This document shows, piece after piece, positions 10,073-63,231 of a stretch of DNA of 64,000 bases. Both the position numbers and the translations under genes were made by a program. The stretch is from Eledone cirrhosa. Lineage: Eukaryota. Every line of letters starts with the position of its first letter. Within the stretch, counting starts at the first letter, position 1. The DNA is taken from positions 27,900,001 through 27,964,000 of the forward strand of contig OZ024741.1 of assembly GCA_964016885.1 (NCBI GenBank), written 5' to 3'. The notes below the pieces were generated by a model. The model made no database searches. It had not been told where the DNA came from and saw nothing but the letters and a program-made list of their open reading frames with translations.

Positions 10073-10140
10073 CGTGTGTAAGAGAATAAATATTGTTTTT
10101 GAATGAAAGAAGTTAATTTTTCCATTGATACTCTTATTTA

Positions 10141-15163: not shown

Positions 15164-15621
<458 letters not shown>

Positions 15622-17442: not shown

Positions 17443-17504
17443 CTATATCACTAATAAATAATGAGAAACAACATTAATCCTTTTGAGATCAATCTACCTA
17501 AAAC

Positions 17505-24236: not shown

Positions 24237-24329
24237 GTTTAAGAATAAAAAAACGTTCTTGATATTAAATAAAGAATTAATTTCAATATTAGTATATTAA
24301 AATTAATATTCTGTTCTTTGTTTATTTTA

Positions 24330-24492: not shown

Positions 24493-24544
24493 GCTTAATT
24501 CAATACTTACTATACTTATATAAAATTAAACTTGCGATAGATCT

Positions 24545-24553
24545 ACTGATTTT
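24545..24553 (-). promoter_or_regulatory. Candidate PSE core AAAATCAGT of U1 copy 1 (copy 2: 28355-28363)
   Basis: Same 9-mer at -61..-52 in all four U1 genes despite divergent flanks. Confidence 0.75.
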
Positions 24554-24740
24554 ACCCCAACCACAACTACTGCAAATTTAATTACCCAATATAAAAATCC
24601 ATAAAACTTCCAAATTGTTCTATTTGTGCAACTATTTACTACTCTCTACTTTCAAAATTATTTTCCTTTATAAAAAGAATCTCAATTTAACAACTAAAAT
24701 ATTTTTAATTACTGTTCCAACTCTAGTATCTTGTATTACT

Positions 24741-24756
24741 CAAGGGAGATAATTCA
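24741..24756 (-). promoter_or_regulatory. Candidate distal element ATTATCTCCCTTG of U1 copy 1 (copy 2: 28551-28566)
   Basis: ATTAYCTCCCTTG lies ~250-270 nt upstream of all four U1 genes. Confidence 0.7.
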
Positions 24757-25189
24757 ACTTTTTTTTCAGCATTAACTACAATCACAAACTTGTAGAAAAG
24801 TGCTTATCAATATTTTCTCTTCCTCCTTCCAGGAAAGTAAGTTGGGAGAAATATCAACGTTGTTTCAAGCAGATCGATGAATCATGCAAATTGATATTCG
24901 TGTGTGCGAGAGTGTTTGTATATGTATGCGTGTCTATATACTATATTACGGTTTATCTAGCTAGATATTACACAATAACATACATATCTACTATATCAGA
25001 GTTATCTAGCTGTATCTTATACACATCACCAATATACTTTAATGAAGACGGTTTAACTGTTTTAAGAAATGTTTATATATTAATCAAGTTTAATACTGAG
25101 AACTGGATAATTAAGATAATAAAATTTGACATCCAAGTGACACTAAAACAATCTCTGTGTATCTGTCGGCTAACTACAATTTTCAGTCT

Positions 25190-26699: not shown

Positions 26700-27330
26700 C
26701 AAGGACTCTAGTGTCACGGTAGAATGGGAGGGTGAGGATGATTGTATTCTTGGCGCGGTGGTTGAGTGGCTGCGGCCAGCGACACCCGCTGCAACAGCAA
26801 CCCCACCGCGCGAGGTTCCCTCCTCAGACGGGCCGCTGACGTTCCGATCTTGCGGAGGAGCTCGACTGTTGGTGGTTCAAGTACGCCTGGGGTCTCCACG
26901 GCGACTGATGCGAAGAGGAAACGGTCGGACAATCCCCGAAATTCGTTTATTTTCTGCAAGGCGGGCCGCGGTACCAGGGTTTGTGGCCGAAGTGACTAAG
27001 TTGGAGGCGGATAACGTGTCGCAACATGTGGCGTTCCAGATGAGGGATCTACCTCCTTTGAATGGGAAGAGGGTGATAACAACGGGACAATTGCCGTCTC
27101 CGCGGTCTAGGCGAGCTGGCTCCGGTGGTGATGGAAAGCCAGCTGCATCCAGGCTCCTTCTCAGTATGTCGTTGAGAGCGATGTGTCGGGGTAACCGGCT
27201 TGCGCTCTGGCGGCAAGACAGAGGCTGCAGGCCGAACTTGTCAACAACCGCCCTGCAACGGCATTTATGTTGCTCACGCACGCAGAGGCCGAGGCATTGG
27301 TTGTATAATGAGGGACAGAGGAGCATGTTA
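26700..27330 (-). mobile_element. CRE-clade non-LTR retrotransposon fragment (zinc knuckle plus restriction-like endonuclease), frameshifted
   Basis: CRC..VVDKFG..PLSC...RH..LNDILRRSL..AG....EP..LDRGDG..P....L.PF..G..LIW..T..DT, continuing in another frame VAVETPGVL...LLQRVSLA. Confidence 0.85.
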
Positions 27331-27563
27331 CATAAAGGACTTGGCAGTAGAAATAAATAAGGAAGGGTAAGTTATATGAGGGAAAGTGTAAAACAAGGTT
27401 CTCGAAGTGGCTGCAAGTGCCCCCAGGGAGGCATTGAGAGGGTCCAGAGGTACGCTGGAGCCTAAGGGGTAGTAAAGATGATACATATATATATAGTAAA
27501 ATAAAAAATATATATTTACTTATACACAGTATATATTGTATTATTTATTATATATTATATATA

Positions 27564-27752: not shown

Positions 27753-28139
27753 TTTATTATATATTATTTACAATTTGCGTGTAGGTAAATCTCTCTGGAA
27801 ATAGGGGTTGGGGACGCTAAAATATTACGTTGACGTGAGAGTGCGGTGGCCCAAAATCTGTTGTGAAAGAAATTAGAAAAAATAGCTATTGATAATAATT
27901 GTTTCTACTTTTGGCACAAGGACAGCAAAACACTCAGTGTATTATTGGTACTTTATTTTATCGACCCCGTAAGGATGTAAGTTAACCTCGGCGGAATTTG
28001 AACTCAGAATGAGAACGGCCGTAACTCTTTGCGTCAAAGCATGGCGTCCCACGCTATACCGATACTGCCAATCCACCGCCATTTTATTGATACTAATAAA
28101 GGATTAAATTCATTATCAGTCTGTTCTTTGTTCATTTTA

Positions 28140-28302
28140 CGGGGTGAGCGCGAACGCAGACCCCACACTTAGAAATAGCGCACCCGAGTCGCCCACATTT
28201 GGGGCGATCGCAAAGGTCAACCCAACCGGAGTGCAATGGAAGGGCCTCACTCTGGGAGAACCACCTAGCTGATCATGGTTAACCCCTGTGCCAGGTAAGT
28301 AT
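28140..28302 (-). ncRNA. U1: U1 snRNA gene, copy 2 (variant type)
   Basis: Coding region identical to copy 1; ~500 bp of upstream flank is also nearly identical (offset 3810). Confidence 0.97.
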
Positions 28303-28742
28303 GCTTAATTCAATACTCACTATACTTATATAAAATTAAACTTACGATAGATCAACTGATTTTACCCCAACCACAACTACTGCAAATTTAATTACCCAAT
28401 ATAAAAATCCATAAAACTTCCAAATTGTTCTATTTGTGCAACTATTTACTACTCTCTACTTTCAAAATTATTTTCCTTTATAAAAAGAATCTCAATTTAT
28501 CAACTAAAATATTTTTAATTACTGTTCCAACTCTAGTATCTTGTATTACTCAAGGGAGATAATTCAACTTTTTTTTCAGCATTAACTACAATCACAAACT
28601 TGTAGAAAAGTGCTTATCAATGTTTTCTCTTCCTCCTTCCAGGAAAGTAAGTTGGGAGAAATATCAACGTTGTTTCAAGTAGATCGATGAATCACGCATA
28701 TTGATATTTGTGTGTGTGTGTGCGTGAGTGTTTGTATATATA

Positions 28743-28777
<35 letters not shown>

Positions 28778-34542: not shown

Positions 34543-34705
34543 ATACTTACCTGGCACAGGGGTTAACCATGATCAGCTAGGTGGTTCCCCCAAAGTGAGG
34601 CCCTTCCATTGCACTCCGGTTGGGTTGACCTTTGCGATCGCCCCAAATGTGGGCGACTCGGGTGCGCTATTTCTAAGTGTGGGGTCTGCGTTCGCGCTCA
34701 CCCCG
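34543..34705 (+). ncRNA. U1: U1 snRNA gene, copy 3 (variant type, two substitutions vs the other copies)
   Basis: ATACTTACCTGG...CACCCCG; differs from the others at 34588 (C vs T) and 34593 (A vs G). Confidence 0.97.
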
Positions 34706-34726
34706 TAAAATAAACAAAAATCAGAA
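34706..34726 (+). terminator. snRNA 3' box-like element
   Basis: TAAAATRAMCAAARAWCAGA follows all four U1 copies and resembles the AAARNNAGA part of the metazoan 3' box. Confidence 0.65.
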
Positions 34727-40060: not shown

Positions 40061-41714
40061 TTAAAATAGAAAGACAACCCATGAAGACCTGATTCAACAA
40101 ACTCCCATGAATTACAGACTGTGTGATGTAGCTTAGAGTTGAAATGTTAGTTAAAATCTCATTTCATCTGAAACACAAAATGAAGATTGGTTTAGTGTTT
40201 ACTAAATTCCTTCTCTCAGTTTTATTTATGGCAAACTCCTCAATACTGGGTGTTTATTTTAGTTTTGAAAGAATCATATTTTACTATTTACATCATCATC
40301 ACCTTCGTTTAACGTCCATCTTCCACGCTAGCATGGGTTAGACGGGAGTTGTCCCACTTGAGGCAAGGTTGGTCGGGTGACCGTGTCTCGCTCATATAGG
40401 TCTATCTGGCAGGTTTTCTATGGCTGGATACCCTTCCTAACACCAACCACATTTACAGTGTGGAACTGGGAACTTTTTACCGTGTTACCTACATGGCCAC
40501 ATTACAGCGTAGACTGTTTTTTTGTTGTGACACCTACACGATCTCGATCTTATTATCTCATTTATTTGGACTGGATGTCATATAAACACAATTTATATAA
40601 GAAATATAATTGATAAAAAAGATATATCAATAAAAATTAGATAAAGATAGATTTAAAAAAATGGAAGAATAGATGCACACTCAACTACACATTACAACAG
40701 GGAATGCTGGTGTTTCGCTCTAAAAACTGTTGAGGCAAGCCAAGACACAGTGAGCATCAACTAAAACTAAGGTGAACTGCTAACAATAGAAGTGTTAAGC
40801 AGTTTAAGATAGAAATCTCTCAGTAAATAGGAAGCTGACACACTGCATTCGAAATAGATAAAATAGTTGTCAGTCGTCCAGGTTTTCTGCTGCAGTGAAC
40901 CTTATCTCCCACTGAGTTAAGTCTTCCTTATTACTGACATACAGGATCGGCGCTACTATTAAGGACAAGTAGGTAGCCGTCTAGGCTGCAGACCTCAGTG
41001 AGGCTCATTCCTGGACTTTAAAGAATCACTGTTTTAAACATATTTGTATAATTAAATTACATATCAATAAATAAAACGCTAATCATCTTTGCTGGCAGTG
41101 TTGCAGAGCTACCCAATGTAGCAGAGAGGGTCGTGTGGTGGTAGGCCTACATACTATAAACATATCAAGTGTATCACACTGATGCCAGTATTGTAATCTC
41201 GATATTTAATTCCTAATTTACTGTAACTAGTTCTGTATATTTGTTATTGTTGGGGATTGGTTTCTGAATTTCATTTCTCCAGAGTTAAAATAAATACCAG
41301 TAATATACTACGGTTAACAAATTATCTTCGATGAAAATCAACTTCGTGTATAGTTTGCAAAAATGAATTAACTAAAAGATCATTCGCAACATATTTGAAT
41401 TCATACTATTGTCAAATTACAAAAATAATGCAGGGCAAGGGAAATAACTCCAACCTAATTATCTAAATAGTATATATTTGGGGCGGGTCACGTTGTCCTA
41501 ATATTGCCCAAAATAGTAAAACGCATTCCCTATTTGATTTGGTTTTCGCTTCAGTATATTTAAAAAAAATATTTCTATGAATAATTTAGCTGGCAATCAA
41601 TATTTATTATTGATTGACCAACAGTTAAAAATATGAATATAGTTTCTCAAAGGATCACTATTTTATACATATTTATTTGTATATACTTTGCAATTCTAAT
41701 GTCAGAATAAGAAT

Positions 41715-42115
41715 AAAATCGGAACGTCAGCAGCCCGTCTGAAGAAGGAGCATCGCAATGTGGGGTGGCTGTTGCAGCACGTGTCGCTGGCCATTGTCCG
41801 CGGAAATGCCTTTGCAGTTTTGTCCGCGGGGTACAGCCGAAACACCGCCCCGACCTAGGCACAGAGTATGTCACCCTCTCCCATTCCCCTTCTCTTTCTC
41901 CCTTGTTCTTTCCCCCTTTTCTTCACATTTACGGCATTTATAGTCCTTTCCTCTAACTTCCTATATAACCAGATCTGCCCTTCTTTACTCTTTCCTCCTT
42001 GTTTTTTCATCACTTAATTTTTTAAAAATCTTTTTTTAAATATTTGTATAACTTCTGTTTGTAAAATATACTTGACATAATAAAACCATAGCTAACCTAA
42101 AAAAAAAAAAAAAAA
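41715..42115 (+). mobile_element. CRE-like retroelement 3' end with poly(A) tail (partial second copy at ~42430-42760)
   Basis: KIGTSAARLKKEHRNVGWLLQHVSLAIVRGNA, the same family as 26700-27330; A-run at 42099-42115. Confidence 0.75.
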
Positions 42116-43662
42116 GAATAGTATATATTTCCCAAATTCAATATCAGAAAGATACAGGCACTAGAAATGAGATGCTACCGCGACATCTTAGACATCAAAA
42201 AATACACAGACCATACCACAGATAAACAGGTCTGCAAAACTATCCAACATCATATTGGCCATCATAAATACCTTGTTATAACAGTAAAAAAAAGAAACTG
42301 AGATGGTATGGCCTTCTAGACCATTCTAGAAGGAACAGTGGAATTTGGGAGAAAAGGAGAAGCAGACAGAGAAAAAGATGGATTGACCTCAAGTATCCTC
42401 GGACCCTATACTGCCGAGCTCCTCTGTAAAATCGGTCGTCACTGGCCATTGTCCGCGGGGCGCAGCCTAAATACCACCCCGCTCTAGGCATAGAGCCTAC
42501 CCCCCCCCCCTTCATCCGTGGCCTCATAGTCTTTTTCCCCTCTCTTTTTTTTTCTCATTTATGGGAATTATAGCATTTTCTACTACTTTCCTCTACAGTC
42601 AGTTCTGTCCTTCTTTACCCCCCCCCCTGTTCGTTGCTTGGTTTTGTTTTTATTCTCTTTTTTCTTTTTCTTTTATATTTCCATCAATATTTGTAATGTT
42701 ATTTATACAATTGAATTGATTTATCAAGCAAATAAGTATATGTTTACTGTTAATTTCATTAAGCAAATTGTTAGAGGAGACCCGAGATCAAGCTCGCAAC
42801 CGCGACAGATAAAGATTAATGTACGGCATGTACCAGGAGGAGTCGAGGGCCTACGATACAATGTGGGATAACTAACTTCTGACAAATGAAGATTGCAGTA
42901 GAGCTTCGATTCTAGACTGATACAAGTTCACTTCATTTTTTGTTTCAAGATTATTATATTGTTATCGATTCCAGATACTATAGATATAAATAACGGTTAA
43001 TAACTCTACGCATGCGCATTCTCATAGAATTTCTAAATTAGGCGATATCCAATTTTAGCGGACTAAATGCCGCTTACTTCAATGTATGAGGCTATTCCAA
43101 CAAATTTACATTTCCCTTTTTTTAGCCGTTAAAAGAAATATAGATTTATTTATTGTTTTTTTTTTGCGATTTATTTGCCACTGGGGCATAGATTTCTTTA
43201 TTTGCCCCTTTTTTGTTTGTTTGTTGTTTTGCGATTTATTAGCCTTTTGGGGTCACAGACACCCCCGTAGAAAGTGTGCGACTTTTCTGCCAGGGAGCAC
43301 AGAGAGAGGGGGGTGTTCCCTTCTTCTCTTACCTGTACAAGCCGATATAGAGAGATGGCCCACTTACACGGGCCATTATTGCTACTTTCACCCATCTTTC
43401 ATGGAATTGGCTGGGACTGAGTGCCTTTTTCTCCACCTTGATCCTTCTTTCGAAGTGGTATCGGAAGAAGAGGACCATTTGTTGGCCGGCGACATATCCC
43501 CACAGTTTCCTCGTTGCAAACGCATCTGGGACATTTCTTTTCCAAGGGGTTTCCGTCCCGGAATCCGTGTCTGTAGAGCCTTTCCCGAACGGGCAGGGCC
43601 CCTCGGTATAATAGTAAGTATTAGTGGTTGTAATAAAAATGCAATCAAAATGTAATAAATAC

Positions 43663-43798
43663 CTTCACTGATTTCTTTCCTTATATTATCAACAGAAGTT
43701 GGTATGTCACCCAAAGTTCGCTTTGTATGTTCCCGAATAGCAGTGAATTTTGATAAAACTGTTTCTAATTCCTTCTCCACAGTAAGACAAATATCCAT
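43663..43798 (-). pseudogene. RMND5: RMND5 (Gid2, CTLH E3 ligase subunit) first coding exon, isolated copy 1
   Basis: MDICLTVEKELETVLSKF resembles human RMND5A MDQCVTVERELEKVLHKF; homology ends at a phase-1 donor GAAG|GTATTT; no further RMND5 exons recognised in the window. Confidence 0.8.
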
Positions 43799-43971
43799 GT
43801 GTAGTTGAAGAGGATAAGTATGAAAGAACAGTCATTTAAATTTACAGATGGACAGATGAGGTGTTTGGCATGGTTTGAGATATATAGAAAAATAATTATT
43901 TACAGAAAAAGAAAATAATAATAAAGAATTATTATAATTTTTTAAAAGATTTATATCTTTTTGGACTACAC

Positions 43972-44107
43972 ATGGATATTTGTCTTACTGTGGAGAAGGA
44001 ATTAGAAACAGTTTTATCAAAATTCACTGCTATCCGGGAACATGCAAAGCGAACTTTGGGTGACATACCAACTTCTGTTGATAATATAAGGAAAGAAATC
44101 AGTGAAG
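43972..44107 (+). pseudogene. RMND5: RMND5 first coding exon, isolated copy 2
   Basis: As copy 1 (EHAK instead of EHTK); donor GT at 44108. Confidence 0.8.
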
Positions 44108-44163
44108 GTATTTATTACATTTTGATTGCATTTTTATTACAACCACTAATACTTACTATTAAA

Positions 44164-44570
44164 CCGAGGGGCCCTGCCCGTTCGGGAAAGGCTCTACAGA
44201 CACGAATTCCGGGACGGAAACCCCTTGGAAAAGAAATGTCCCAGATGCGTTTGCAACGAGGAAACTGTGGGGATATGTCGCCGGCCAACAAATGGTCCTC
44301 TTCTTCCGATACCACTTCGAAAGAAGGATCAAGGTGGAGAAAAAGGCACTCAGTCCCAGCCAATTCCATGAAAGATGGGTGAAAGTAGCAATAATGGCCC
44401 GTGTAAGTGGGCCATCTCTCTATATCGGCTTGTACAGGTAAGAGAAGAAGAGAACCTCCCCTCTCTCTGTGCTCCCTGGCAGAAAGGTCGCACACTTTCT
44501 ACGGGGGTGTGTGTGACCCCAAAAGGCTAATAAATCGCAAAAAAACAAACAAACAAACAAAAAAGGGGCA
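44164..44570 (+). mobile_element. Tx1/L1-type LINE 3' end with an internal deletion, present in each of the four arms
   Basis: Alternative frames read RGALPVRERLYRH...KKCPRCVCNEETV (zf-RVT-like) and LFFRYHFERRIKVEKKALSPSQFHERWVKVA...* (stop 44439-44441); AATAAA at 44529 and an A-rich tail. Confidence 0.75.
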
Positions 44571-45215
44571 AAGGCGATATCCAATTTTAGCTGTCTAAAT
44601 GCCGCTTACTTGCTGCAGTTACTGCTTACTTCAATGTATGAGGCTATTCCAACAAATTTACATTCCCCCTTTTTTTAGCCGTTAAAAGAAATATAGATTT
44701 ATTTATTGTTTTTTTTTTGCGATTTATTTGCCACTGGGGCATAGATTTCTTTATTTGCCCCTTTTTTGTTTGTTTGTTGTTTTGCGATTTATTAGCCTTT
44801 TGGGGTCACAGACACCCCCGTAGAAAGTGTGCGACTTTTCTGCCAGGGAGCACAGAGAGAGGGGGGTGTTCCCTTCTTCTCTTACCTGTACAAGCCGATA
44901 TAGAGAGATGGCCCACTTACACGGGCCATTATTGCTACTTTCACCCATCTTTCATGGAATTGGCTGGGACTGAGTGCCTTTTTCTCCACCTTGATCCTTC
45001 TTTCGAAGTGGTATCGGAAGAAGAGGACCATTTGTTGGCCGGCGACATATCCCCACAGTTTCCTCGTTGCAAACGCATCTGGGACATTTCTTTTCCAAGG
45101 GGTTTCCGTCCCGGAATCCGTGTCTGTAGAGCCTTTCCCGAACGGGCAGGGCCCCTCGGTATAATAGTAAGTATTAGTGGTTGTAATAAAAATGCAATCA
45201 AAATGTAATAAATAC

Positions 45216-45351
45216 CTTCACTGATTTCTTTCCTTATATTATCAACAGAAGTTGGTATGTCACCCAAAGTTCGCTTTGTATGTTCCCGAATAGCAGTGAA
45301 TTTTGATAAAACTGTTTCTAATTCCTTCTCCACAGTAAGACAAATATCCAT
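45216..45351 (-). pseudogene. RMND5: RMND5 first coding exon, isolated copy 3
   Basis: Same translation as copy 1, offset 1553. Confidence 0.8.
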
Positions 45352-45524
45352 GTGTAGTTGAAGAGGATAAGTATGAAAGAACAGTCATTTAAATTTACAG
45401 ATGGACAGATGAGGTGTTTGGCATGGTTTGAGATATATAGAAAAATAATTATTTACAGAAAAAGAAAATAATAATAAAGAATTATTATAATTTTTTAAAA
45501 GATTTATATCTTTTTGGACTACAC

Positions 45525-45660
45525 ATGGATATTTGTCTTACTGTGGAGAAGGAATTAGAAACAGTTTTATCAAAATTCACTGCTATCCGGGAACATGCAA
45601 AGCGAACTTTGGGTGACATACCAACTTCTGTTGATAATATAAGGAAAGAAATCAGTGAAG
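45525..45660 (+). pseudogene. RMND5: RMND5 first coding exon, isolated copy 4
   Basis: Same translation as copy 2, offset 1553; donor GT at 45661. Confidence 0.8.
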
Positions 45661-46728
45661 GTATTTATTACATTTTGATTGCATTTTTATTACAACCACT
45701 AATACTTACTATTATACCGAGGGGCCCTGCCCGTTCGGGAAAGGCTCTACAGACACGAATTCCGGGACGGAAACCCCTTGGAAAAGAAATGTCCCAGATG
45801 CGTTTGCAACGAGGAAACTGTGGGGATATGTCGCCGGCCAACAAATGGTCCTCTTCTTCCGATACCACTTCGAAAGAAGGATCAAGGTGGAGAAAAAGGC
45901 ACTCAGTCCCAGCCAATTCCATGAAAGATGGGTGAAAGTAGCAATAATGGCCCGTGTAAGTGGGCCATCTCTCTATATCGGCTTGTACAGGTAAGAGAAG
46001 AAGAGAACCTCCCCTCTCTCTGTGCTCCCTGGCAGAAAGGTCGCACACTTTCTACGGGGGTGTGTGTGACCCCAAAAGGCTAATAAATCGCAAAAAAACA
46101 AACAAAAAAGGGGAAAATAAAGAAATCTATGCCCCAGTGGCAAATAAATCGCAAAAAAATAAAAATAAATAAATCTATATTTCTTTTAACGGCTAAAAAA
46201 AAGGGGAATGTAAATTTGTTGGAATAGCCTCATACATTGAAGTAAGCAGCAAGTAAGCAGCATTTAGACAGCTAAAATTGGATATCGCCGTAAACAAACA
46301 AACAAACAAAAAAAGGGGCAAATAAAGAAATCTATGCCCCAGTGGCAAATAAATCGCCAAAAAAAACCCAATAAATAAATCTATATTTATTTTAACGGCT
46401 AAAAAAGGGGGAATGTAAATTTGTTGGAATAGCCTCATACATTGAAGTAAGCAGCAACTACAGCAAGTAAGCGGCATTTAGGCCGCTAAAATTGGATATC
46501 GCCTCTAATTGAAATAGGCATTCTTATCGTTAACTTTGAATATTTTAATATTTCGTTTAATAAAATGAAAAATAACTTGTTGTTATACTTGGGGAGGGTC
46601 ATATTGTTGTAATAATATTGCCAGAAATAATAACAGAACACACTCACTGTTTGGTTGGTTGAATAACTTGAAACAACATAAAATATTATATTCAGAACGA
46701 CTTAACGAAAATATTTGAATGGATTAAT

Positions 46729-47001: not shown

Positions 47002-47164
47002 ATACTTACCTGGCACAGGGGTTAACCATGATCAGCTAGGTGGTTCTCCCAGAGTGAGGCCCTTCCATTGCACTCCGGTTGGGTTGACCTTTGCGATCGC
47101 CCCAAATGTGGGCGACTCGGGTGCGCTATTTCTAAGTGTGGGGTCTGCGTTCGCGCTCACCCCG
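47002..47164 (+). ncRNA. U1: U1 snRNA gene, copy 4 (variant type)
   Basis: Coding region identical to copies 1 and 2, in divergent flanks. Confidence 0.97.
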
Positions 47165-47439
47165 TAAAATAACCAAAAATCAGATTATTGCTATTTCCTA
47201 TTTTTCTCCTAATGATTTCTACCTTCATCTTCTCTAATAGTATTTTATCTTAGAGTGAGCTCGTGACCCTGTGTGGTGTGCGACCAATTGAAATACTTTG
47301 TGTTGAATTGGTAAGGCCTTTCTTTATAATGTTCTTTTTTTTCCATTATCCCATGTATAATGTTTTTTAGAGTATAAAGAAAATTAATTGTCGCAGGAAT
47401 GTTACCACTTAAAATATAATTTTGCAGGAAATGGATTAG

Positions 47440-47670
<231 letters not shown>

Positions 47671-48064
47671 TGATATTTATCTCATTGGCTCAACTTTCTT
47701 TTCTTATTCCTTCTCCATTTGTAATTTCTTGTAATATATTGAGTAATGAGAGATTTCCACCCAGCATGGTTATGAGGTCTGTTCCTATGCCAGGCCCTCA
47801 ACCAGTTCTTGGCAGATCTGGCTTCCACATCTCGTTGTAGCTGAACACTTTCTGTTACCGTATGGTGACGATATCCTGTGGATTACTGAGCCTAGCTCTT
47901 TCAATGACATCTTCATTGGTGTGGTTACACCAAGATATGTGGAAGACATCTGCAGTTATATAGATTCTGTTGGGTTTTTCTCCACATCTTGCAAGCATAT
48001 GTTGCTGTTAGCACAAGTGTTGAACTATACAGGTGGGGTTGGTTGATGAAGGAGTTGTGCTATA

Positions 48065-48280
48065 CAGATGGAGTTTGGTACTTCAGTTAATGAGGTTAGA
48101 CTATGTAAGTGGAGTTTGGTACCTCAGTTAATAGAGATAGACCATATAGGTGGAGTTTGGTACCTCATGTAATAGAGATAGACCATGTAGGTGGAGTTTG
48201 GTACCTCAGTTAATAGAGATAGACTATGTAGGTGGAGTTTGGTACCTCAGTTAATGAAGGAGTTAGACCATATAGGTGGC
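48065..48280. repeat. ~41-bp tandem repeat, ~5 units
   Basis: gtggagtttggtacctcagttaatagagatagaccatatag repeated. Confidence 0.85.
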
Positions 48281-49049
48281 GTTTGTTGCCTTGGTTGATG
48301 ATGAGTTGGAAGACAGCTGTAGCTATGCCCTCCACATCAGTTTCTGAGTTGCCATCGTTAGTGCTCAGATATGCAAATGAATCTGGCTCTCTAGCTAAAC
48401 AGGTTGCTATTCTACCTCCCCAACAATCATAATGTTTTTAGGGTGCTATTAACGTGGCATATTTTAATAAAAATCTATGGGTTTTCAATTCAATTCTATA
48501 ATTTGTATTTTTTAAATTTCTTTTTTTTCTTTACCACTACCAGGAGTTTAAATTTGTATAGTATGAAACAGCTGATAGACATGTTTGTCTCTCTCTGTCT
48601 GCTTTCTCTCTCTCTTTATTTCACTGTCTACTCTCTCTCCCTTTGATTATCTCTCTTTTTGTCTGTTGGTCTGTTTTTGTTTCTGAGAAGAGTTGAACTT
48701 AGTACAGTCAGCTGACTCACTTAGCAATTACTTTAGCTTCTCTTGGGTAGCTCTTAGGTACTCTAAAATAAAAATGGTAGCTCTACAGCAGAGGTTGAGA
48801 ACATAGGGCACTTTAGCTTCTCTTGGGTGGTCCTCTTTTTCTTTTTTAGGTAGTCTAAAATAAAAATAAAAATTACGACCAGGCCATCAAAACAATTTCA
48901 GATAAGATTCAAAGCCAAAAATCACATTGAGTAAGAACTATATTAACTAAATTCCTGTTCTCTTGTATGTATTTTTGTTTATAATAAATTATAGTTCTCA
49001 TAATTAGCTAAAATTTGTCTCTTTGGATGAAAAAGTTTCCCCATTTCTG

Positions 49050-49275
49050 CTCCACATGATTGATGAAAGTGTGTGGCCTAGTGGTTAGTGTTTGACTCCA
49101 CATGTGAGGTGAAAGTGTGTGGTCTAGTGGTTAGTGTTGGACTCCACATGTGAGGTGAAAGTGTGTGGTCTAGTGGTTAGTGTTGGACTCCACATGTGAG
49201 GTGAAAGTGTGTGGCCTAGTGGTTAGTGTTGGACTCCACATGTGAGGTGAAAGTGTGTGGCCTAGTGGTTAGCAT
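49050..49275. repeat. 46-bp tandem repeat, ~5 units, containing a tRNA A-box-like SINE head
   Basis: ctccacatgtgaggtgaaagtgtgtggtctagtggttagtgttgga repeated. Confidence 0.85.
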
Positions 49276-49395
49276 TTCTTTCCCACATGATAGTTATCAT
49301 AGAACATTGAGAGCTAAACATCTTTGGTCAATAACCAAATAGAACTCACTGACCATTTGGCTGCTAGACTGACCAAATGGTTTTGTGGACTGTAA

Positions 49396-49554
<159 letters not shown>

Positions 49555-49744
49555 TAATATGTTAAGAATATCATCAACATCATCCTCGTTTAATGTCTAT
49601 CTTCCACGCTAGCATGGGTTAGACTGGCTGTCCTATTTGAGGCAAGTCTTGCTCATACAGAAATGCTTCTGGCCTGGTTTCTACGGCTGGATGGCCTTCC
49701 TAATGCCAACTACATTTACAGTGTGTACTGGGCGCTTTTTGTCG

Positions 49745-49955
49745 TGGCACCAAAATGACCACTTTATAGTGTGGGCTGGGTGGTTTTTGTCATGACACCA
49801 ACATGACCACTTTACAGTGTGGGCTGGGTGGTTTTTGTCATGACACCAACATGACCACTTTACAGTGTGGGCTGGGTGGTTTTTGTCATGACACCAACAT
49901 GACCACTTTACAGTGTGGACTGGGTGCTTTTTGTTGTGGCACCAACATGACCACT
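49745..49955. repeat. 48-bp tandem repeat inside an RTE 3'UTR relic (~49570-49955)
   Basis: caccaacatgaccactttacagtgtgggctgggtggtttttgtcatga x ~4. Confidence 0.8.
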
Positions 49956-50469
49956 ATGTATATATCATCAATGTCTCATCTCATCTCAGCCAATCTTCCA
50001 GTTGAACCTGGGATTTAAACTCATGCCTGACATCTCACTTCTCAATCTTTGTTTGTATTTCTGATAAAGTTTGATCTGGTGTCTCTTTGATATTGTCTCT
50101 CACAGTTTATCTGTTCATACATTGGCTGCCATTATACCAGACATGAGACCATTTCTTCAGAGTTTCACACACTGACCTGCTAACCACACTCTTTACTGAG
50201 CTATCTTTTCAATCAGTGTAATCAATTAGTAATATAAACTAGATTTTGTCCATTTCAAGCAGTTTCTGTCTCTCTCTCTCACACACACATACACATGCAT
50301 ACACACACACACACAAATATGAATGTATATGTACTTCAAGGTTAAAAAGAAAACCAATTACCCAGATTTGTATTAGTTTCAAGTTTGTGATAAAAGGAAA
50401 AAGAATGTCTCAATGTATCAGATGTTAATCTTTCATCAGGAAAGAGTAAAGTTAAGAAAGGTTGGAAGG

Positions 50470-50523
<54 letters not shown>

Positions 50524-50680
50524 AAAGGTAAACAGAAATAACAAAAATAAACGGCATAGTACATGGAAGAAGTATATTAGTTTAATGCTTGAAATAACAG
50601 GAAGAGAGTAAGATAGTTATAAATAGAAAGTAAAGAGTGATGAGTGGATATGTATGAATTATATAAACTTCTATTATCAG

Positions 50681-50820
50681 GTGGCAGCTTGGAGAAACTT
50701 ATTTCTCAAGATAAACATCTTCCTGAATACTCCATTCGAAAATTTGGTGTTGATCTCATCAGGGGCCTTCATTTCCTTCATTCTCTTAACATAATCTTCT
50801 GTGATCTTCGTCCTTCCAAG
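50681..50820 (+). CDS. ULK4: ULK4 coding exon 3
   Basis: cag|(G)GSLEKLISQDKHLPEYSIRKFGVDLIRGLHFLHSLNIIFCDLRPSK|gtcagt; 140 nt. Confidence 0.95.
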
Positions 50821-53164
50821 GTCAGTTGAACAAATTTGTTACTTTCAAGTAAGAACTTTTTTGTAATAACCTTTTTGAATTCCATGTATCTAACACTGTT
50901 GGACATGCTTACAGAATCAGAAAACAGTACAGCTCCCATGACTTTCGGAAACATTTTTTCACACTCAGAGTTGCTGAAGCATGGAACAAATCACCTGTAT
51001 CAGTTGTTAGCTGTCAGGACGGTGCATCCTTCAAAACCTTCATGCTTCCCAAAATTTGCCAACACTACACCTGATATTCCACCTCTATACACACACATGC
51101 ATGTGTGAATGTATCTGTGTGTATATCATGCCTTGTACATTGTTCACTTTCCTGACATTTGTACATTATTCTAAGTACTATACATGCATCTTTGATGAGT
51201 TGTAGTGCACCTGAGCATTGTACACAATAATTTTCATTATTATTATTTACTATTCAACATCTGTTTTTCATGCTTGCTTGGGTTTGACAGGTTGTCATGT
51301 TCTGGGGTTAGACAAGTCAGGTGACCATGTCTTGATAATACATTACATTTTTGGCTTCAGTTCTACAGTTGAATGCTCTGCCTAATGCCAACTACTTTAG
51401 AAAATGTACTGGGTACTTTTTATCGTAACTCCAGGACTACCACTTTACAGGGTGGACTTGGTGTGTTTTTGGTGTAGACCAACACTACGACTTTACAAAA
51501 TGGATTGTGTGCTTTTTGGTTTGGCACCAGCACTACCATCTTGCAATAGTTGATATAGTGTGTATAGTTTGTAAATTTGCAGCTTGAATCTGTTGAATTG
51601 CATGCAGTGCAGACACATACAATCACTCTCAAATGGACATATATAGACTTGCTTGCACATTTGAAAAAAATAATTTTTCTTATTTTTTTCTTATTGATTT
51701 AGTCTGCAGCCCCCACTCCCTAGAATGAGATTTGCTTAGTGGACAGGAAATGGTTGGACATTACTGTTCACTTTCAACATATACATATACACAAGTAACC
51801 AATGTACAACACGGAAGTTAATGTATACATAGAAAATTAATGGTGTGTACAATAATATGCAGCAAAAGCACAAGTATTTTAGGGTTAATTTCCTCACCTG
51901 TGGGTCCCATGACAGGCTTTATATTCATTATGGGAACAGCTTTAAAGCAATGTTTTATAACACGATGCCCTTCCTGGTGCCAGACCATTTAGTTGCCTCT
52001 TATGACACACAGGTATGATGTAATTAGTCTAAACTGGATAAATACAGCAAGTGTAAAAATAATTCTACATAACATACATATAAAGCAAACATACTTTTGT
52101 CAGAGTGAAAAATATTTGCACCACATAAGATTTATTGGTACATTGAATATTAAATATTAGAGGAAACACTTTTAGACAGTGTGTTAGTTTACTTCAACAC
52201 AGTGTGGCAAGATAGGTTTATTTCACCAATATAGTTAGACAGGTTTGCTCTTCCAGTGTAGTTAGACAAGTTTTCATCAGTTGATACCTTTGTGTAACCT
52301 TGAATTGGTAGAATCATTAGAACATCAGTATTTACTCTGGTTCTCTGAACTCTGAGTTCAAACATTGACTTTCATCATTTATGGGGAGTTTGATAAAGTT
52401 CCTGTCCAAGGTTGGTGGATTGACTGGTACAGAGTCAGATGAGATATTTGCAGTGTTTGATTTGGCTCTTTGTATTTGGAGTTCAAATCCGACCTCCTTC
52501 TGCTAGGAATTGTGACCAACAGACAGTATCAGCAATGTAAAGATCAAAGAAAACATTGTTTCTTTGGTTTGATCTAATGATTAGCTTCTGATGTATATCG
52601 TGTATTTTTGGCTTGGTTTTTATGACTAGAAGCCTTTCTTATCACCAACCACTTTGCAGCATTGACTGGGTGTATTATACTACTGTCATTAGAGAGGTTG
52701 TACACATCAGAACTAAAGCATCCCCTCATAACTGATCACTTTTTGTTCACAGCTTTTTGAGTCCACATCTTTATTTTATTATTTTTTTTTTTATTCATCC
52801 TCTGAATGTGTCATTGTACTGGTGAATTATTATCAATGTACACACATTTAACTCTTTGATATCAAACAACCTGATATCACCCTTGGTTCTATTGTTTTGA
52901 ACTGTTCATATTTACTTAAAAAGCTTCAATCATAATTCTATTTAAGAACCTTTGTTAAGATATGTTCTAAACACCAACTTAATATTGAGAAACTTTGTTT
53001 TAACACTAAATCTTGTCAAATTCTTGATTATTTAAAAAATTATTTGAAAATTATAGGTAACATCTTAGATTAGAAATATGTTAATAAAATGGTTAAATGA
53101 AATTTATAACAGATCTCCATTACCGAAAAAGTAGCATAACTCCATTGACTATTTTTTTTTTCAG

Positions 53165-53318
53165 CTTTTATTTGATTGTTATGGCAAACTAAAATATGCT
53201 GACTTTGGTCTGTCTAGAACTGAAGAAGAAAACCTGGAAGTAGTCTTTCAAAATTTTCTTGAAATTAGTGACATTGATTCAAAAGATGAAGAACTTATCA
53301 AGAAACAACCAACAAAAG
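53165..53318 (+). CDS. ULK4: ULK4 coding exon 4
   Basis: (t)n cag|LLFDCYGKLKYADFGLSRTEEENLEVVFQNF...KQPTK(G)|gt; 154 nt, phases consistent with its neighbours. Confidence 0.93.
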
Positions 53319-53719
53319 GTTTCTTTCTTTATTTATTTGTTATCCTGACAGATAATCCCTCTAGTACTGGGGTCACAATAAAGTCACTAAGTCCATGCTG
53401 TAATGTGGTTGATGATAGGAAGGGCTTCCAGCCAGAAAACCCTCAAGACTAGCATATCCTGACAGATAATCCCTCTAGTACTGGGGTCACAATAAAGTCA
53501 CTAAGTCCATGGTGTAATGTGGTTGATGATAGGAAGGGCCTCCAGCTAGAAAACCCTCAAGACTAGCACAACTCACAAGATAAACACTTAATATATATAT
53601 TGCAAGAAATGTTATGAATAAAGAGAAGTTGTGCTGAGACAGACTCATCCAACCAATACAAGCATAGAAAAATAGATGAAAAATGATGAAAGAAATCTTC
53701 ATCATCATCATGTTCCTGC

Positions 53720-57806: not shown

Positions 57807-58858
57807 TGACAGGACCCTCTCCTGACAGGACCCTCTCTTCTAACAGGACTCTCTTCTGACAGGACTCTCTCTTCTGACAGGACCCTCTCTTCTAACAGGA
57901 CCCTCTCTCCTGACAGGACCCTCTCTTCTGACAGGACTCTCTCTCCTGACAGGACCCTCTCTTCCCACAGGACCTTCTTCTGACAGGACCCTCTACAGGA
58001 CCCTCTCTTCTGACAGGACCCTCTCTCCTGACAGGACCCTCTCTTCTAACAGGACCCTCTCTTCTGACAGGACCCTCTTTCCTGACAGGACCCTCTCTTC
58101 TGACAGGACCCTGTCTTCTAACAGGACCCTCTCTCCTGACAGGACCCTCTCTCCTGACAGGACCTTCTCTTCTGACAGGACCCTCTCTCCTGACAGGACC
58201 CTCTCTTCTAACAGGACCCTCTCTTCTGACAGGACCCTCTCTTCTGACAGGACCCTGTCTTCTAACAGAACCCTCTCTTCTAACAGGACCCTCTCTCCTG
58301 ACAGGACCCTCTCTCCTGACAGGACCCTCTCTCCTGACAGGACCCTCTCTTCTAACAGGACCCTCTCTTCTAACAGGACCCTCTCTCCTGACAGGACCCT
58401 TTCTCGTGACAGGACCCTCTCTTCTAACAGGACCCTCTCCTGACAGGACCCTCTTTTCTGACAGGATCCTCTCTTCTAACAGACCCTCTCCCCTGACAGG
58501 ACCCTCTCTTCTAACAGGACCCTCTCTTCTGACAGGATCCTCTCTTCTAACAGACCCTCTCCCCTGACAGGACCCTCTCTTCTAACAGGACCCTCTCTTC
58601 TGACAGGATCCTCTCTTCTAACAGACCCTCTCTCCTGACAGGACCCTCTCTTCTAACAGGACCCTCTCTTCTAACAGGACCCTCTATCCTGACAGGACCC
58701 TCTCTTCTGACAGGACCCTCTCTTCTGACAGGACCCTCTCTTCTAACAGGGCCCTCTCTCCTGACAGGACCCTCTCTTCTAACAGGGCCCTCTCTCCTGA
58801 CAGGACCCTCTCTTCTAACAGGACCCTCTCTCCTGATAGGACCCTCTTCTGACAGGAC
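57807..58858. repeat. 18-bp minisatellite, consensus TGACAGGACCCTCTCTTC, roughly 58 units, running into an RTE 3' tail (to ~58933)
   Basis: Direct reading; the last unit continues as tctgacaggaccagatggaaggagtg...ggaataagcgggtgaagaggagaagaag. Confidence 0.95.
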
Positions 58859-59034
58859 CAGATGGAAGGAGTGTGTGAGGACTCTGCCCCCACGACCCTC
58901 CCAGGAATAAGCGGGTGAAGAGGAGAAGAAGACTATTTCATCTCGATATCAACTCCTCCTCCTCCTCCTCCTCCTCCCCCTCTCTAAATAAATAACTAAA
59001 ACATTTTATTTTCATATTTGTGAATATTTTACAG

Positions 59035-59312: not shown

Positions 59313-59851
59313 ATTGTTGTTATTGACGTTGTTGTGGTTGTTGTGGTTGTTGTTGTGGTTGTTGTTGTTGGTGTTGACATTGTTGTGGTTGTTGTGGTTG
59401 TTGTTGTGGTTGTTGTGGTTGTTGACATTGTTGTGGTTGTTATTGTGGTTGGATTGGTTGTGGTTGTTGTGGTTGTTGTTGTGGTTGTTGTTGTTATTGA
59501 CGTTGTTGTGGTTGTGGTTGTTGTGGTTGTTGTTGTTGTTGTGGTTGTGGTTGTTGTTGTGGTTGTTGTTGTTGTTGTGGTTGTTGTGGTTGTTGTTGTT
59601 GTTGTTGTTGTGGTTGTTGTTGTGGTTGTTGTGATTGTTGTGGTTGTTGTTGTTGTGGTTGTTGTTGTTGTTGACATTGTTGTGGTTGTTGTTGTTATTG
59701 GCGTTGTTGTGGTTGTTGTTGTTATTGACGTTGTGGTTGTTATTGTTGTTGTGGCTGTTGTGGTTGCTGTGGTTGTTGTTGTGGTTGTTGAAGTTGTTGA
59801 TGATGTTTGTGTTGATGTTGTTGTGGTTGTTGTTGTTGTGGTTGTTGTTGT

Positions 59852-59882
<31 letters not shown>

Positions 59883-59980
59883 GCTGATGTTGATGTGATT
59901 AATGTTGTTCATGTAGTTGTCATTGATGTTGTTGATATCGATGTTGTTGTTAGTTTTGGTGCTATTGGTGTTGTTGTTGT
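59313..59980. repeat. (GTT)n/(GTG) trinucleotide microsatellite
   Basis: Direct reading; source of the poly-V/N/T/L ORFs. Confidence 0.95.
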
Positions 59981-61669
59981 CATTTAGCTCCATGTCAGCC
60001 ATGATTCAAGTGATCTATGATCAAATGCAGTCTAATCATATCATGTTTTTACTCCATATACTACAGCCTACACATATGCAGGGGTTTAGCTGGCCTCCAA
60101 TGAGGTTATAGAAGTTCCTTGGGTCTTTTAATGATTGGGGTCCTTGTCCTCTCATGTGTGTGTGTGTGTGTGCATAAATGTTATTACAACTCTCATCTAT
60201 ATAGGTTTAGTCTCCTACCAGGTTGTATTTCATAAGAGGTTTCTAGGGTGTTTTATAATAGGGGTCCCAGTCCTATCATGAAAAACAACATGAAAGGAAG
60301 CATTTTGCTCAAGAACACAACACACCACCTGGTCCAAGAATCAGACCTATTATTTTAAGATCATGAATCCAACACCCTAACCACTAGACCATCTGCCTTC
60401 ATTCTATCAATACTACAGCTTCAACTAAATTATCAAATGTGTCCATTTTTTAAAGACATTAAACTGTCACATGAGGGAGATTTGCTTGCTATTTCTAGGC
60501 AGTCAAGTGACTATGTAGGGGCTCCTTCATTTGCTTGGTTTTGTTGAAGTTGTTGTTTGTGGTACAGAAGCAGAAACATTAAAGTTCCCTGTTGCATCTC
60601 TTTTTTTTTTAATGATTAGTCCTGGCTGGATCATTTTCAGGGTTTCCAATACTCTCCTCCCATGACCCTCTCAGGAATAAGTGGGCAAAGAAGAAGAAAT
60701 AGAAGACTAGACAAGTCACAGTAACCTCATCTTGCTTGTATATTCTATGTTTAACATGGTCTCTATGGCTGGATGCCCTTACTAATTCCAGCCACCTTAC
60801 AGAGTGTACTGGGTGCATTTTATCATGGTACCAGCACTAGCGAGGTAGCTGGATGTTTGGTCAACCTGAGGAGTCCTCTCTCCCCTATATTGTGTCCATT
60901 TCATTGCCAACCATTTTCTAGAGTCTACTGGTTATGTTTCATGTCACCAACACTAGAGAAGTCAGGTACACAACAGTACAAGAGGGTCTTCTCTACAAGC
61001 TGTATTGTCTTGGTCTCTTCATCCACAACTTTATGAAGTGTATTCTGTTGTGACACTTCCATTGGTAATTTGTTAGTAGCTTTCATTGAATCTTCTTTGT
61101 TATTTCATCACAGCAATAATGTCTTCACCTGTCATAGACATGAATACTTTCAAACCAAAAACACATACAGCTGGGGAAACCAGTTTAGGAGAAGGTCTCT
61201 TCACCTTGAGGTTTGTATGGTTTCATATTGGTTTCTTACATTCAGCCACCCATGAGCCTTTAACTCCTTATGGAATAGTAGGGGAACCTTTAATCAGATA
61301 TGTACACAGTAGTTATTGAAATATTACATATAAAAGTATCACTCTTAAATAGCTGCTAAGAGAGACTATCTTATGCAATCACATTTTTAAGACATTTCAA
61401 CATTTCAAATTGACACCTTCAACAGTATGTAAATAAGAAAATAGCCCCCATATATAGAACTACAAGTAGACAACATACAAGCTACACCATATATACTCAG
61501 ACTTTAGCAACATATCACATAACTTCCTAGTATCAACACTAATGGTCAAATGTTTAACACTCAACTCAATTTAATAATTAATAATGAACTAGTTAATAAT
61601 GCATAATAACAAACCACACTGTAACTTCACTATTAGATCACTGCATATATTAAATAAATGTATAAATGT

Positions 61670-63040
61670 GATTGTGCCTGGGAAAAGTACAACAGATACC
61701 CTCTTCTTAATGAGACAACTACAAGAGAGGTTCTTAGAGAAGAATAAGCCACTATATTTAGCTTTTGTTGACTTAGAGAAGGCCTTTGATAGGGTACCCC
61801 GATCTGTCATCTGGTGGTCCCTAAGGAAGTTAGGTGTTGAGGAATGGCTTGTGAGGACAGTGCAAGCTTTGTACAGAGGTGCTGTCAGTAAAGTGAGGGT
61901 AGGAATGGAGTTTTGTGAGGAATTTCAGATACAAGTAGGAGTACATCAGGGTTCGGTCCTCAGCCCGCTCTTGTTCATTATAGTCCTCCAAGCCATAATA
62001 GAGGAGTTTAAGACTGGCTGTCCATGGGAACTTCTCTATGCTGACGATCTGGTTCTTATAGCAGAATCAGTAGAGGAGCTATAAGAACCAGAATATAAAT
62101 TCTGGCTATGGAAACAGCAGTTGGACTCAAGAGGACTGCGAGTGAACCTAGCTAAGACAAAAGTGTTGATGAGTAGAAACGAGGACAAAACTCTGATTCC
62201 GTCAGGGAAATGGCCATGTTCGATATGCAGAAAAGGAACTGGCATAAATTCTATAAAATGTACACAATGCAGATCTTGGGTACACAAGACATGTAGCGGG
62301 ATAGCAGGCAAACTAACAGGTAGGGAGAAATATGTATGCAGCAGATGTACAGGGAAATTTGACAGTAGAAGTCGCATTGATAGACACATTTTTCAAATGC
62401 AGGTGGGTGCTATAGAAGTGGTGGATAGCTTCCGGTACCTAGGAGATCAGATTAGCATAGGAGGGGGGGGGTTTGCAAGGCCATAGTATCTAGAATAAGG
62501 ACGGGTTGGAAGAAGTTTAGGGAGCTGCTTCCTCTGCTGACGAAGAAGGGTTTCTTCCTGCATATGAAAGGCGGGTTATATGATGCCTGTGTGAGGTGCG
62601 CGATGCTGCATGGTAGTGAGACATGGGCAGCAACTGCAGAGGATATGCGACCGCTGGAGAGAAATGAGGCAAACATGTTCCGTTGGATGTGCATTGTCAA
62701 CGTACATGAATGACCGAGCATGGATGTGTTGATAGAGAAACTGTGTCTGAGAGAGATAAATTGTAGTGTGTGGGAGAGGAGACTGCGATGGTATGGACAT
62801 GTGATGCGTATGGAGGATGACCGCTGGGTAAAGAAGTTCCAGGAAATGCCAGTTGAAGGAAGACATAGTAGAGGAAGATCACGAAAAACAAGGGCAGAGG
62901 TGGTGAGAGCAGACCTCAGATTGTTGAAACTCACGGAGCAGAAGACGAAGGACTGTGACAAGTAGAGAAATGCTGTGCTGAATAGGATCCGTCCCACCCT
63001 TGCAAGCAGGGAAAAGCGGACGTAAAATGATGATGATGAT
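61670..63040 (+). mobile_element. Diverged RTE LINE (sister subfamily), disrupted, with (GAT)n tail
   Basis: GKSTTDT, FVDLEKAFDRV, GVHQGSVLSP, YADD, WPCSIC...WVHKTC...CSRC, FRYLG, LRWYGHV; stops and frameshifts. Confidence 0.93.
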
Positions 63041-63231
63041 ACAAGGGGGTTCTGAAAAGTTCCTGGCTTTGGGTAAAAGAAAATACAGGAGGATCAGTTA
63101 AATATGATATTCAACATATTCCCCTCTCAGGTTTACACACTTATTGCAACGGTCTTACCTCCGCTGTAAAGGTAACAGCTCTGCCCTTTCATGATACCCT
63201 TGGAGCCAAGTTCTTTTCAGCAACCCCGGTA
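63040..63231. mobile_element. Mariner-like MITE
   Basis: ta-caagggggttctgaaaagttcctggct ... agccaagttcttttcagcaaccccgg-ta. Confidence 0.6.

Follow-up and report, generated by a model that had tools for sequence, protein, structure and literature searches.

The segment 43041..46503 of the window, by which the whole analysed 64-kb stretch of likely octopus DNA is meant, is built from four arms of 608-786 nt around two 159-nt spacers and is not a plain tandem duplication. Every arm carries the first RMND5 exon together with 55 nt of its intron and a LINE-like 3' end. We favour, with moderate confidence, an origin as a non-autonomous foldback-type DNA transposon which carries a captured RMND5-LINE piece and was later inserted into the right arm of a sister copy. 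The structure is confirmed in the sequence; the doubling is known from one assembly. The locus is composed of the following parts:

43041..43805, minus strand: arm A1 (765 nt), the outer unit's left arm, starting with the shared end motif
43806..43964, no strand: outer-unit spacer, 159 nt, AT-rich, central 137 nt identical to the second spacer
43965..44572, plus strand: arm A2 (608 nt), inner part of the right arm of the outer unit, broken at 44572 by the inner unit
44543..44572, plus strand: A-rich 30-nt stretch, repeated beyond the inner unit (30 matches and one gap against 46292-46322)
44573..45358, minus strand: arm A3 (786 nt), the inner unit's left arm, starting with the shared end motif
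45359..45517, no strand: inner-unit spacer, 159 nt
45518..46289, plus strand: arm A4 (772 nt), the inner unit's right arm, closing with the shared end motif
46292..46503, plus strand: end piece of 212 nt, the rest of the outer unit's right arm, following a 2-nt filler and closing with the shared end motif

The units are offset by 1553 nt and their spacers are equal (43806-43964 = 45359-45517). With the inner unit left out, the outer pair of arms is complete (765/789 nt, 750 matches), and the inner pair comprises 786/772 nt with 760 matches; long inverted repeats, the mark of a foldback or long-TIR element, are thus present at both ends of each unit. Arm cores of the same orientation differ at 0-1 of 560 nt, those of opposite orientation at 7-8 of 560 nt plus one indel. 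Compared unit against unit, four difference events fall into the first 75 nt and one into the next 1438 nt (Fisher P 3e-5), which does not agree with an even divergence after one tandem duplication. The end-specific differences together with the 212-nt end piece point to one unit nested in the other. An initial annotation had described two tandem units, formed by an inversion and a subsequent tandem duplication. Its coordinates, four arms, offset, outward-facing ATGs, spacer length and 55 nt of intron were all recovered, and the precedence of the inversion over the doubling agrees with the core differences, but the end piece and the transposon-like ends had been missed and the doubling looks like a nested insertion rather than a tandem event. 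Long palindromes are difficult to assemble, and unit interiors differing at a single position in 1438 nt might suggest that assembly or amplification created the doubling, or even the whole palindrome, e.g., by stitching together two haplotypes of one palindrome. We consider this quite unlikely: both units repeat the same differences between opposite arms, a pattern that no read chimera would yield, the flanks are not mirrored, the four ends in full are four different sequences, and no flank DNA lies between the units.

The arms contain these features:

43663..43798, minus strand: RMND5 exon-1 copy 1 with 136 coding nt; residue 25 is T, and 6 of 45 residues depart from Octopus RMND5
43972..44107, plus strand: RMND5 exon-1 copy 2, A at residue 25, 7 of 45 residues different, phase-1 donor GT at 44108
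45216..45351, minus strand: RMND5 exon-1 copy 3, identical to copy 1
45525..45660, plus strand: RMND5 exon-1 copy 4, identical to copy 2
45661..45715, plus strand: 55 nt after the donor site, read as RMND5 intron 1, the same in all arms
45716..46087, plus strand: LINE-like 3' end in the sense of the exon, with a frameshifted zinc-knuckle-like coding remnant, a stop, a short 3' region and AATAAA at 46082, the same in all arms
46088..46289, plus strand: candidate transposon terminus formed by the arm's outer 200 nt, which contain A tracts, short repeats prone to slippage and an internal repeat of 36 nt

The assignment to RMND5 made in the initial annotation holds. Sixty-three proteins matched the exon at E<=0.001, nearly all of them short frames whose match runs to the same exon end, a named Octopus RMND5A shares 39 of 45 residues, and the closest solved structure is human RMND5A (E 0.11). 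A word-index search of the 46-residue exon against proteins gave nothing among 12 candidates. The parental locus is not in the window, and a metagenome scan for it with the nearest homologue yielded 370 pattern matches and none confirmed, in a collection that may contain no octopus DNA; an exact look-up of fused exon-intron-LINE frames, which had no valid control, found 0 of 3. The ATGs face outward (43798 minus, 43972 plus, 45351 minus, 45525 plus), and residue 25 follows orientation as had been noted before, EHTK on minus and EHAK on plus copies. The intron assignment is supported by a read-through of a homologue with the Octopus exon, which begins alike. Judged by these matches, the arms certainly contain a host gene fragment, and it reads as a drifted copy of RMND5 exon 1: 6-7 of 45 residues are changed at positions identical between Octopus and Argonauta RMND5, each change being one base away, and neither T13 nor P33 is seen in any of 236 database homologues. 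The copies retain their ATG, open frame and phase-1 donor, as they would if one of the four were the real RMND5 first exon of the animal with the other exons outside the window. The chance of this is close to nil, given the changed residues and the surroundings. A functional gene would combine a conserved exon 1 with downstream CTLH/RING exons, yet no later exon was found in the 20 kb on the right of the locus or in the 43 kb on its left, and the right side is occupied by ULK4 on the plus strand. Throughout the 64 kb, tblastn of nine proteins and a 103-sequence profile matched the four copies only, in agreement with the initial annotation, and Octopus RMND5 as query gave the same four with all other matches at E>=2.

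The portion beyond the intron is likely a LINE 3' end. It stands out by a G+C content of 51-53 % versus 20-36 % in neighbouring parts, and it possesses a stop, AATAAA and an A-rich tail; the coding remnant resembles, as we presume, the C-termini of L1/Tx1 ORF2. The pieces (38-111 residues) had no significant match in Pfam, solved structures or Atlas (Atlas scores <=0.89). The LINE label of the initial annotation, confirmed by none of these libraries, is based on the features just named.

The ends of the units speak for a transposon. A single 19-nt motif, GGCGATATCCAATTTTAGC, opens all four full ends from an identical base and is absent elsewhere in the window at <=3 mismatches (4 matches versus 0.01 expected), and a sharp terminal sequence shared by every end (4/4) is what a foldback transposon should display. 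Over the terminal 30 nt the inner ends agree completely, one site separates the two outer ends, and two sites separate inner from outer ends. The flanks of the outer unit offer a candidate degenerate target-site duplication:

43032..43040, plus strand: left 9-nt flank TCTAAATTA, candidate degenerate target-site duplication, 7 of 9 nt matching the right flank
46504..46512, plus strand: right 9-nt flank TCTAATTGA, candidate degenerate target-site duplication

The likeness was equalled by 591 of 169650 local flank pairs (0.35 %) in ungapped comparison and by 3.1 % of 3000 with a flexible score. Compared with the 9-10-nt target duplication of Mutator-like elements (MULE or FB4 type; PMC8277862), this best flank match has 9 nt with two mismatches. 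The 3 nt beside the ends differ at both units; membership in the Harbinger superfamily, the family of Turmoil-1, was rejected on the missing 3-nt target duplication (PMC2572040). The inner unit has no short duplication adjacent to its ends and is bounded instead by a 30/31-nt direct repeat plus the 2-nt filler, and we know of no cut-and-paste insertion that normally leaves such a trace. No transposase is present in the unit, which has no room for one. The other U1 units contain no empty paralogous site. The terminal sequence was found neither elsewhere in the window nor by a metagenome scan with the end motif, again in a collection that may contain no octopus DNA.

Several of these observations would suit an origin without transposase, by which a retro-copied or duplicated RMND5-LINE fragment became a palindrome through fold-back template switching and was doubled by replication slippage or break repair. 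The ends are known in no other copy from window or metagenome scan, the flanks match imperfectly, and the inner 30-nt repeat and its filler resemble a product of template switching; exon and LINE-like part have the same sense, as described for LINE chimeras (PMC11838501). We assign this explanation a minor but real probability. Against it, all four junctions break at the same base of one motif, and the inner ends match each other, not their tandem partners. A fold-back in place should furthermore have left the arms running on into a flank, but the flanks show no likeness to the arms or to RMND5.

For the foldback transposon, the following history can be proposed. RMND5 exon 1 with 55 nt of intron would have become fused to the LINE 3' end, either because reverse transcription switched templates or because a LINE entered a duplicated intron, and the fragment would then have drifted without selection. 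The element may next have acquired it beside one of its terminal repeats. If the opposite end was then repaired from that one, an inverted copy could have arisen, with both arms lengthened to ~780 nt. Finally, a second copy would have been inserted in the right arm, with duplication of 30 nt. To move the element, a transposase from elsewhere would have been needed. As a host fragment within transposon ends the element would qualify as a Pack-TIR, provided that the ends are those of a transposon, as we infer.

Individual traits of the locus recur in known systems. Maize double Ds and Mu killer resemble it as an element within its own copy and as a transposon-made inverted repeat with a possible hairpin RNA, but belong to a plant with a full siRNA pathway, and their arms lack a host exon. 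Turmoil-1 of C. elegans, a member of the Harbinger superfamily, is described with host exons in both 760-bp inverted repeats (PMC2572040). The similarity extends to repeats of ~760-780 nt with host exon and intron in both arms and to the decay of the captured piece; however, Turmoil-1 is reported to have a transposase between its arms and nine genomic copies or fragments (PMC2572040), whereas the octopus locus has a 159-nt middle, no 3-nt target duplication, one known locus and a LINE-like piece aboard. Pack-TIRs and Ssk-FB4 likewise hold an animal host gene fragment within terminal-repeat ends, and FB4 is characterized by 9-10-nt target duplications and ~700-nt repeats. As presented there, their cargo sits once between the repeats, in contrast to the cargo within both arms of the octopus locus, and their parents and transposon families were identified, neither of which has been located for the octopus locus (PMC8277862). 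Galileo terminal repeats are reported to have grown by taking in internal sequence, and some copies combine ends and a middle that differ in origin (PMC3573991). With Galileo and the Tm1 Mutator/Foldback elements the locus shares long, internally repetitive and unequal arms, arms extended from internal sequence, and a different divergence of ends and middle; nested insertions and missing target duplications are described for them as well (PMC3573991, PMC3169594). Both are, however, presented as multi-copy families with a known transposase (PMC3573991, PMC3169594), and the DNA recruited by Galileo is described as the element's own, not a host exon (PMC3573991).

The insertion is located 500 nt upstream of U1, outside two conserved upstream motifs; an element targeting U1, in the manner of Dada and Tx1 types, was dropped for this reason. 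Close to the intron-LINE junction, 8 nt agree with the 5' end of U1, which we put down to chance. Nine sequencing runs were listed for a 6.7-kb stretch, six containing part of it and three at least half (0.71, 0.67 and 0.65, from one sample); no RNA run was among the matches listed. Flank-only words represent 66 % of the distinct 31-mers in this stretch, so these shares say nothing on the presence of the element. A published report of such an element was not found in the open-licence literature.

The initial annotation had interpreted the locus as a candidate source of double-stranded RNA. A crossing transcript is indeed predicted to fold into long dsRNA, with a perfect stem of 245 bp and energies from -1224 (first hairpin) to -1464 kcal/mol, and an AATAAA ends each sense arm, so that, from whichever side it came, a transcript would run through an antisense arm, the loop and a sense arm to a polyadenylation signal. 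Such an RNA might originate nearby, with a U1 gene 0.5 kb and the start of ULK4 1.0 kb to the right, and with a high CpG content in the left flank (1.2, reached by 6 % of 400-nt windows). The long inverted repeat able to fold is a property of Drosophila-type hpRNAs, and the young inverted repeats hp58, hp-ODox1 and hp-ODox2 are described as having arisen from exon fragments or LINE sequence; these were, however, defined by transcripts and Dcr-2-dependent siRNAs (PMC10317233). A working hairpin-RNA gene, the read-through RNA of which is diced or edited and lowers RMND5 or silences the LINE family, is nevertheless very unlikely. Dicer-2 and the siRNA Argonaute, i.e., the Dcr-2 and AGO2 proteins of the fly pathway, are reported absent from molluscs in two surveys (PMC11114477, PMC12479628), and small-RNA libraries including those of O. 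bimaculoides had no siRNA signature, with rare cell types allowed by the authors (PMC12479628). The exon accounts for only 136 of 772 nt (18 %) of an arm, most of which is not RMND5 mRNA. At most 20 of 116 21-mers, an upper bound derived from protein differences and not from parent DNA, could pair perfectly with a parent encoding the conserved protein, and there is no sign of a retained match. The suggested feeding of Dicer and regulation of RMND5 is a weak reading, and the initial interpretation as a whole is partly supported. Editing by ADAR, also suggested, is plausible for such a transcript, but it is generic for young repeats and would not by itself regulate RMND5.

The locus probably does not work as a gene for RNA silencing and most likely plays no part in regulating RMND5, and there is no evidence of function as it stands. 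Read-through RNA, if formed, would mainly be an ADAR substrate and a target of repeat silencing. A speculation less probable still than the hairpin-RNA gene is that an active octopus foldback family spreads RMND5/LINE hairpins and that transcripts of a copy near the promoters of U1 and ULK4 are processed by Dicer-1 or hyper-edited by ADAR, a form of gene-directed silencing after the loss of Dicer-2.

If the transposon reading is true, the locus is a young and clean mollusc case in which both arms of a foldback element have captured a host exon. In 100 animal reference genomes a survey reported no Pack-MULE, in a main text without mention of octopus or molluscs (PMC8277862). The locus shows a way for long hairpins that match a gene to emerge in cephalopod genomes even where silencing is not selected for. 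With its predicted 245-bp stem near active promoters it also represents a natural test substrate that would reveal how the octopus cell handles long endogenous dsRNA, and this bears on whether RNAi with long dsRNA can work in these animals.

Self-comparison of the window resolved the locus at 43041..46503 into four mirrored arms around two AT-rich spacers of 159 nt each, as the initial annotation had described. The outer unit consists of A1, A2 and an end piece, the inner unit of A3 and A4.

43041-43805, minus strand, arm A1
43965-44572, plus strand, arm A2
44573-45358, minus strand, arm A3
45518-46289, plus strand, arm A4
46292-46503, end piece

Outward from the spacer, each arm comprises 7 nt, a coding exon of 136 nt terminating at a phase-1 GT in every arm, 55 nt of AT-rich sequence, a G+C-rich stretch of 372 nt and an AT-rich end of about 200 nt. 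Arms of opposite orientation diverge by about 1.4 %, and the differences are sorted by orientation consistently across both units, as had also been noted. This consistency and the flanks, which are not mirrored, make an assembly or amplification artefact improbable; the four-arm palindromic structure is real in the sequence.

The assignment of the exon to RMND5 exon 1 was borne out by 63 library proteins matching at E<=0.001. Nearly all are short frames with the same exon end followed by unrelated intron read-through; among them is a sand-fly fragment of 177 residues, which hits human RMND5A with an E of 3e-24. The nearest match to the exon is the RMND5A found in Octopus and Argonauta, which marks the window as animal DNA, likely octopod. 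Only the four exon-1 copies were matched by Octopus RMND5, by nine proteins in tblastn and by a profile built from 103 full-length homologues; no further RMND5 exon was found in the 64 kb, in agreement with the earlier reading. RMND5 residues 1-45 are invariant (0/45 differences) in full-length sequences from O. vulgaris, O. bimaculoides and Argonauta hians, whereas the copies differ from them at six positions on the minus arms (K13T, L21I, Q26K, A28T, A33P, K40R) and at seven on the plus arms (additionally T25A), every change being a single-base step. T13 and P33 occur in 0/236 stored homologues (ungapped comparison, near-duplicates included). Judged from these residues, and with other octopods rather than the host species as the reference, the copies have drifted from conserved octopod RMND5; it speaks against drift that four changes lead to residues common in other animals. 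Since about 6 % of the replacement sites are changed, far above the divergence between opposite arms, the fragment likely left the RMND5 gene well before the arms arose or were last homogenised.

The 372-nt stretch was annotated as a LINE 3' end. A frameshifted coding remnant, a stop and AATAAA are indeed present; the family label was not confirmed by any library match (Pfam, solved structures, Atlas) and rests on a likeness to L1/Tx1 C-termini. The exon-intron-LINE join in a single sense resembles reported LINE chimeras carrying first exons (PMC11838501), and a LINE insertion within an intron of a duplicated RMND5 fits as well.

The palindromic unit is doubled as claimed, but the proposed plain tandem duplication is contradicted by the shared end motif, the similarity of the inner ends and the interrupted outer arm. 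All four full ends begin at the identical base of one 19-nt motif absent elsewhere in the window (4 matches vs 0.01 expected). Compared over 30 nt from their starts, the two ends of the inner unit (44573, 46289) show no difference, those of the outer unit (43041, 46503) show one, and two sites separate inner from outer ends. Arm A2 breaks off 30 nt into an A-rich stretch, which recurs at 46292 past a 2-nt filler and is followed by the remaining arm; with the inner unit left out, the outer pair measures 765 and 789 nt (750 matches, 14 mismatches, 5 gaps). The two units differ from each other four times within the initial 75 nt and once over the following 1438 (P 3e-5, which overstates the contrast, since the four include a homopolymer change and a slip of 20 nt between short repeats). 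The doubling is best read as a nesting of one unit inside another.

To the right of the element, the U1 gene at 47002 follows after 0.5 kb and the start codon of ULK4 after 1.0 kb, in a window with four U1 snRNA genes, the ULK4 start and an NHE6-like exon.

2854-3318, minus strand, first coding exon of an NHE6/NHE9-like sodium-proton exchanger, gene running out of the window
17505-19204, minisatellite array, 19-nt period
24329-24492, minus strand, U1 snRNA gene
28139-28302, minus strand, U1 snRNA gene
34543-34706, plus strand, U1 snRNA gene
47002-47165, plus strand, U1 snRNA gene
47509-47646, plus strand, ULK4 exon (ULK4 span 47509-53319)
about 49451-49550, plus strand, ULK4 exon
50681-50821, plus strand, ULK4 exon
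from 53165, plus strand, ULK4 exon
57807-58859, minisatellite array, 18-nt period
59314-59980, minisatellite array, 9-12-nt period

Three U1 genes are identical and one has a 2-nt difference; all four look intact, because both motifs upstream of them, one near -60 and the other between -257 and -270, are kept. The minus-strand pair (24310-24933 and 28120-28749) has 630 nt in common at 97 % identity, which indicates a recent local duplication of gene and promoter. From the U1 gene end to the ULK4 start codon are 343 nt on the same strand (47002-47646). A splice acceptor directly precedes the ULK4 ATG, so a non-coding first exon near U1 or further left is likely. CpG is depleted in the ULK4 gene body (0.16 vs 0.81 in 24.5-47 kb). 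The left flank of the element, 42640-43040, is CpG-rich (observed/expected 1.2) and is a putative promoter; GCATGCGC, present once in the whole window, lies in it at 43010, 30 nt short of the element. A unique 75-nt stretch flanks the element at 41473-41544 and 46584-46660 (74 % identity); as the right copy sits about 400 nt upstream of U1, the left one may have remained from a U1 upstream region since lost. Reverse-transcriptase LINEs are present in several copies of 87-97 % similarity (7000-22200 and 61600-63100); these alternate in orientation within 15 kb and form longer inverted repeats than the RMND5 element. A further likely LINE, which we take to be of the restriction-like endonuclease type, has left related 3' relics that cluster among the U1 genes (26774-27371, 41715-41990, 42438-42620).

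Folding prediction agrees with the expectation that a transcript crossing the locus would fold into long dsRNA and gives a strong structure, with spacer-centred hairpins of 695-815 pairs and a 245-bp perfect stem. AATAAA closes each sense arm, hence RNA read into the locus from the left or the right would be laid out like a hairpin RNA. The regulation of the parental RMND5 gene suggested on this basis is very improbable. Fly hpRNAs are described as recognised by Dcr-2-dependent siRNAs (PMC10317233), whereas two surveys report molluscs without Dicer-2 and siRNA Argonaute (PMC11114477, PMC12479628), one also reporting no siRNA signature in its libraries, O. bimaculoides included, with rare cell types allowed for. 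Furthermore, the exon occupies only 136 of 772 nt of the arm, the LINE-like part 372, and of the 116 exon 21-mers no more than 20 could match the parental gene if this encodes the conserved protein. Editing at the locus would be ordinary, since editing across animals is reported to target mostly young repeats, octopus being in the survey (PMC9989829).

The outer flanks agree at 7/9 nt. Ungapped agreement is equally good in 591 of 169650 local pairs, and on a flexible score (gaps, other lengths, 1-nt shift) 3.1 % of 3000 do as well; no short duplication was found at the ends of the inner unit. A non-autonomous foldback-type DNA transposon, the reading we moderately favour, would account for the sharply defined ends in common, the long arms of unequal length, the short repeats inside them and the 9-nt near-duplication. 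A palindrome made by repair, without transposase, is unlikely, if less so than an artefact; it draws on the failure to find the element at another locus, a transposase for it or a perfect target duplication within the 64-kb window. For the foldback transposon, precedents are described: in C. elegans, both 760-bp repeats of Turmoil-1 hold host exons plus an intron (PMC2572040), a likeness to the exon and intron sequence in both arms here. Galileo repeats grow when internal sequence at one end is copied to the opposite end, and some copies have a middle and ends that differ in origin (PMC3573991). Tm1 shows 9-nt duplications, nested insertions and some copies without duplications (PMC3169594), and in flies a gene was captured by elements of the FB4 type, whose duplications are 9-10 nt long (PMC8277862). 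The main texts of the open-licence literature on RMND5 in octopus, octopus foldback/MULE or Pack-TIR work yielded no description of this element. The locus is likely a decayed exon carried in a nested foldback element; every ingredient has precedent, and their joint occurrence in a cephalopod is new within the reach of the open-licence literature.
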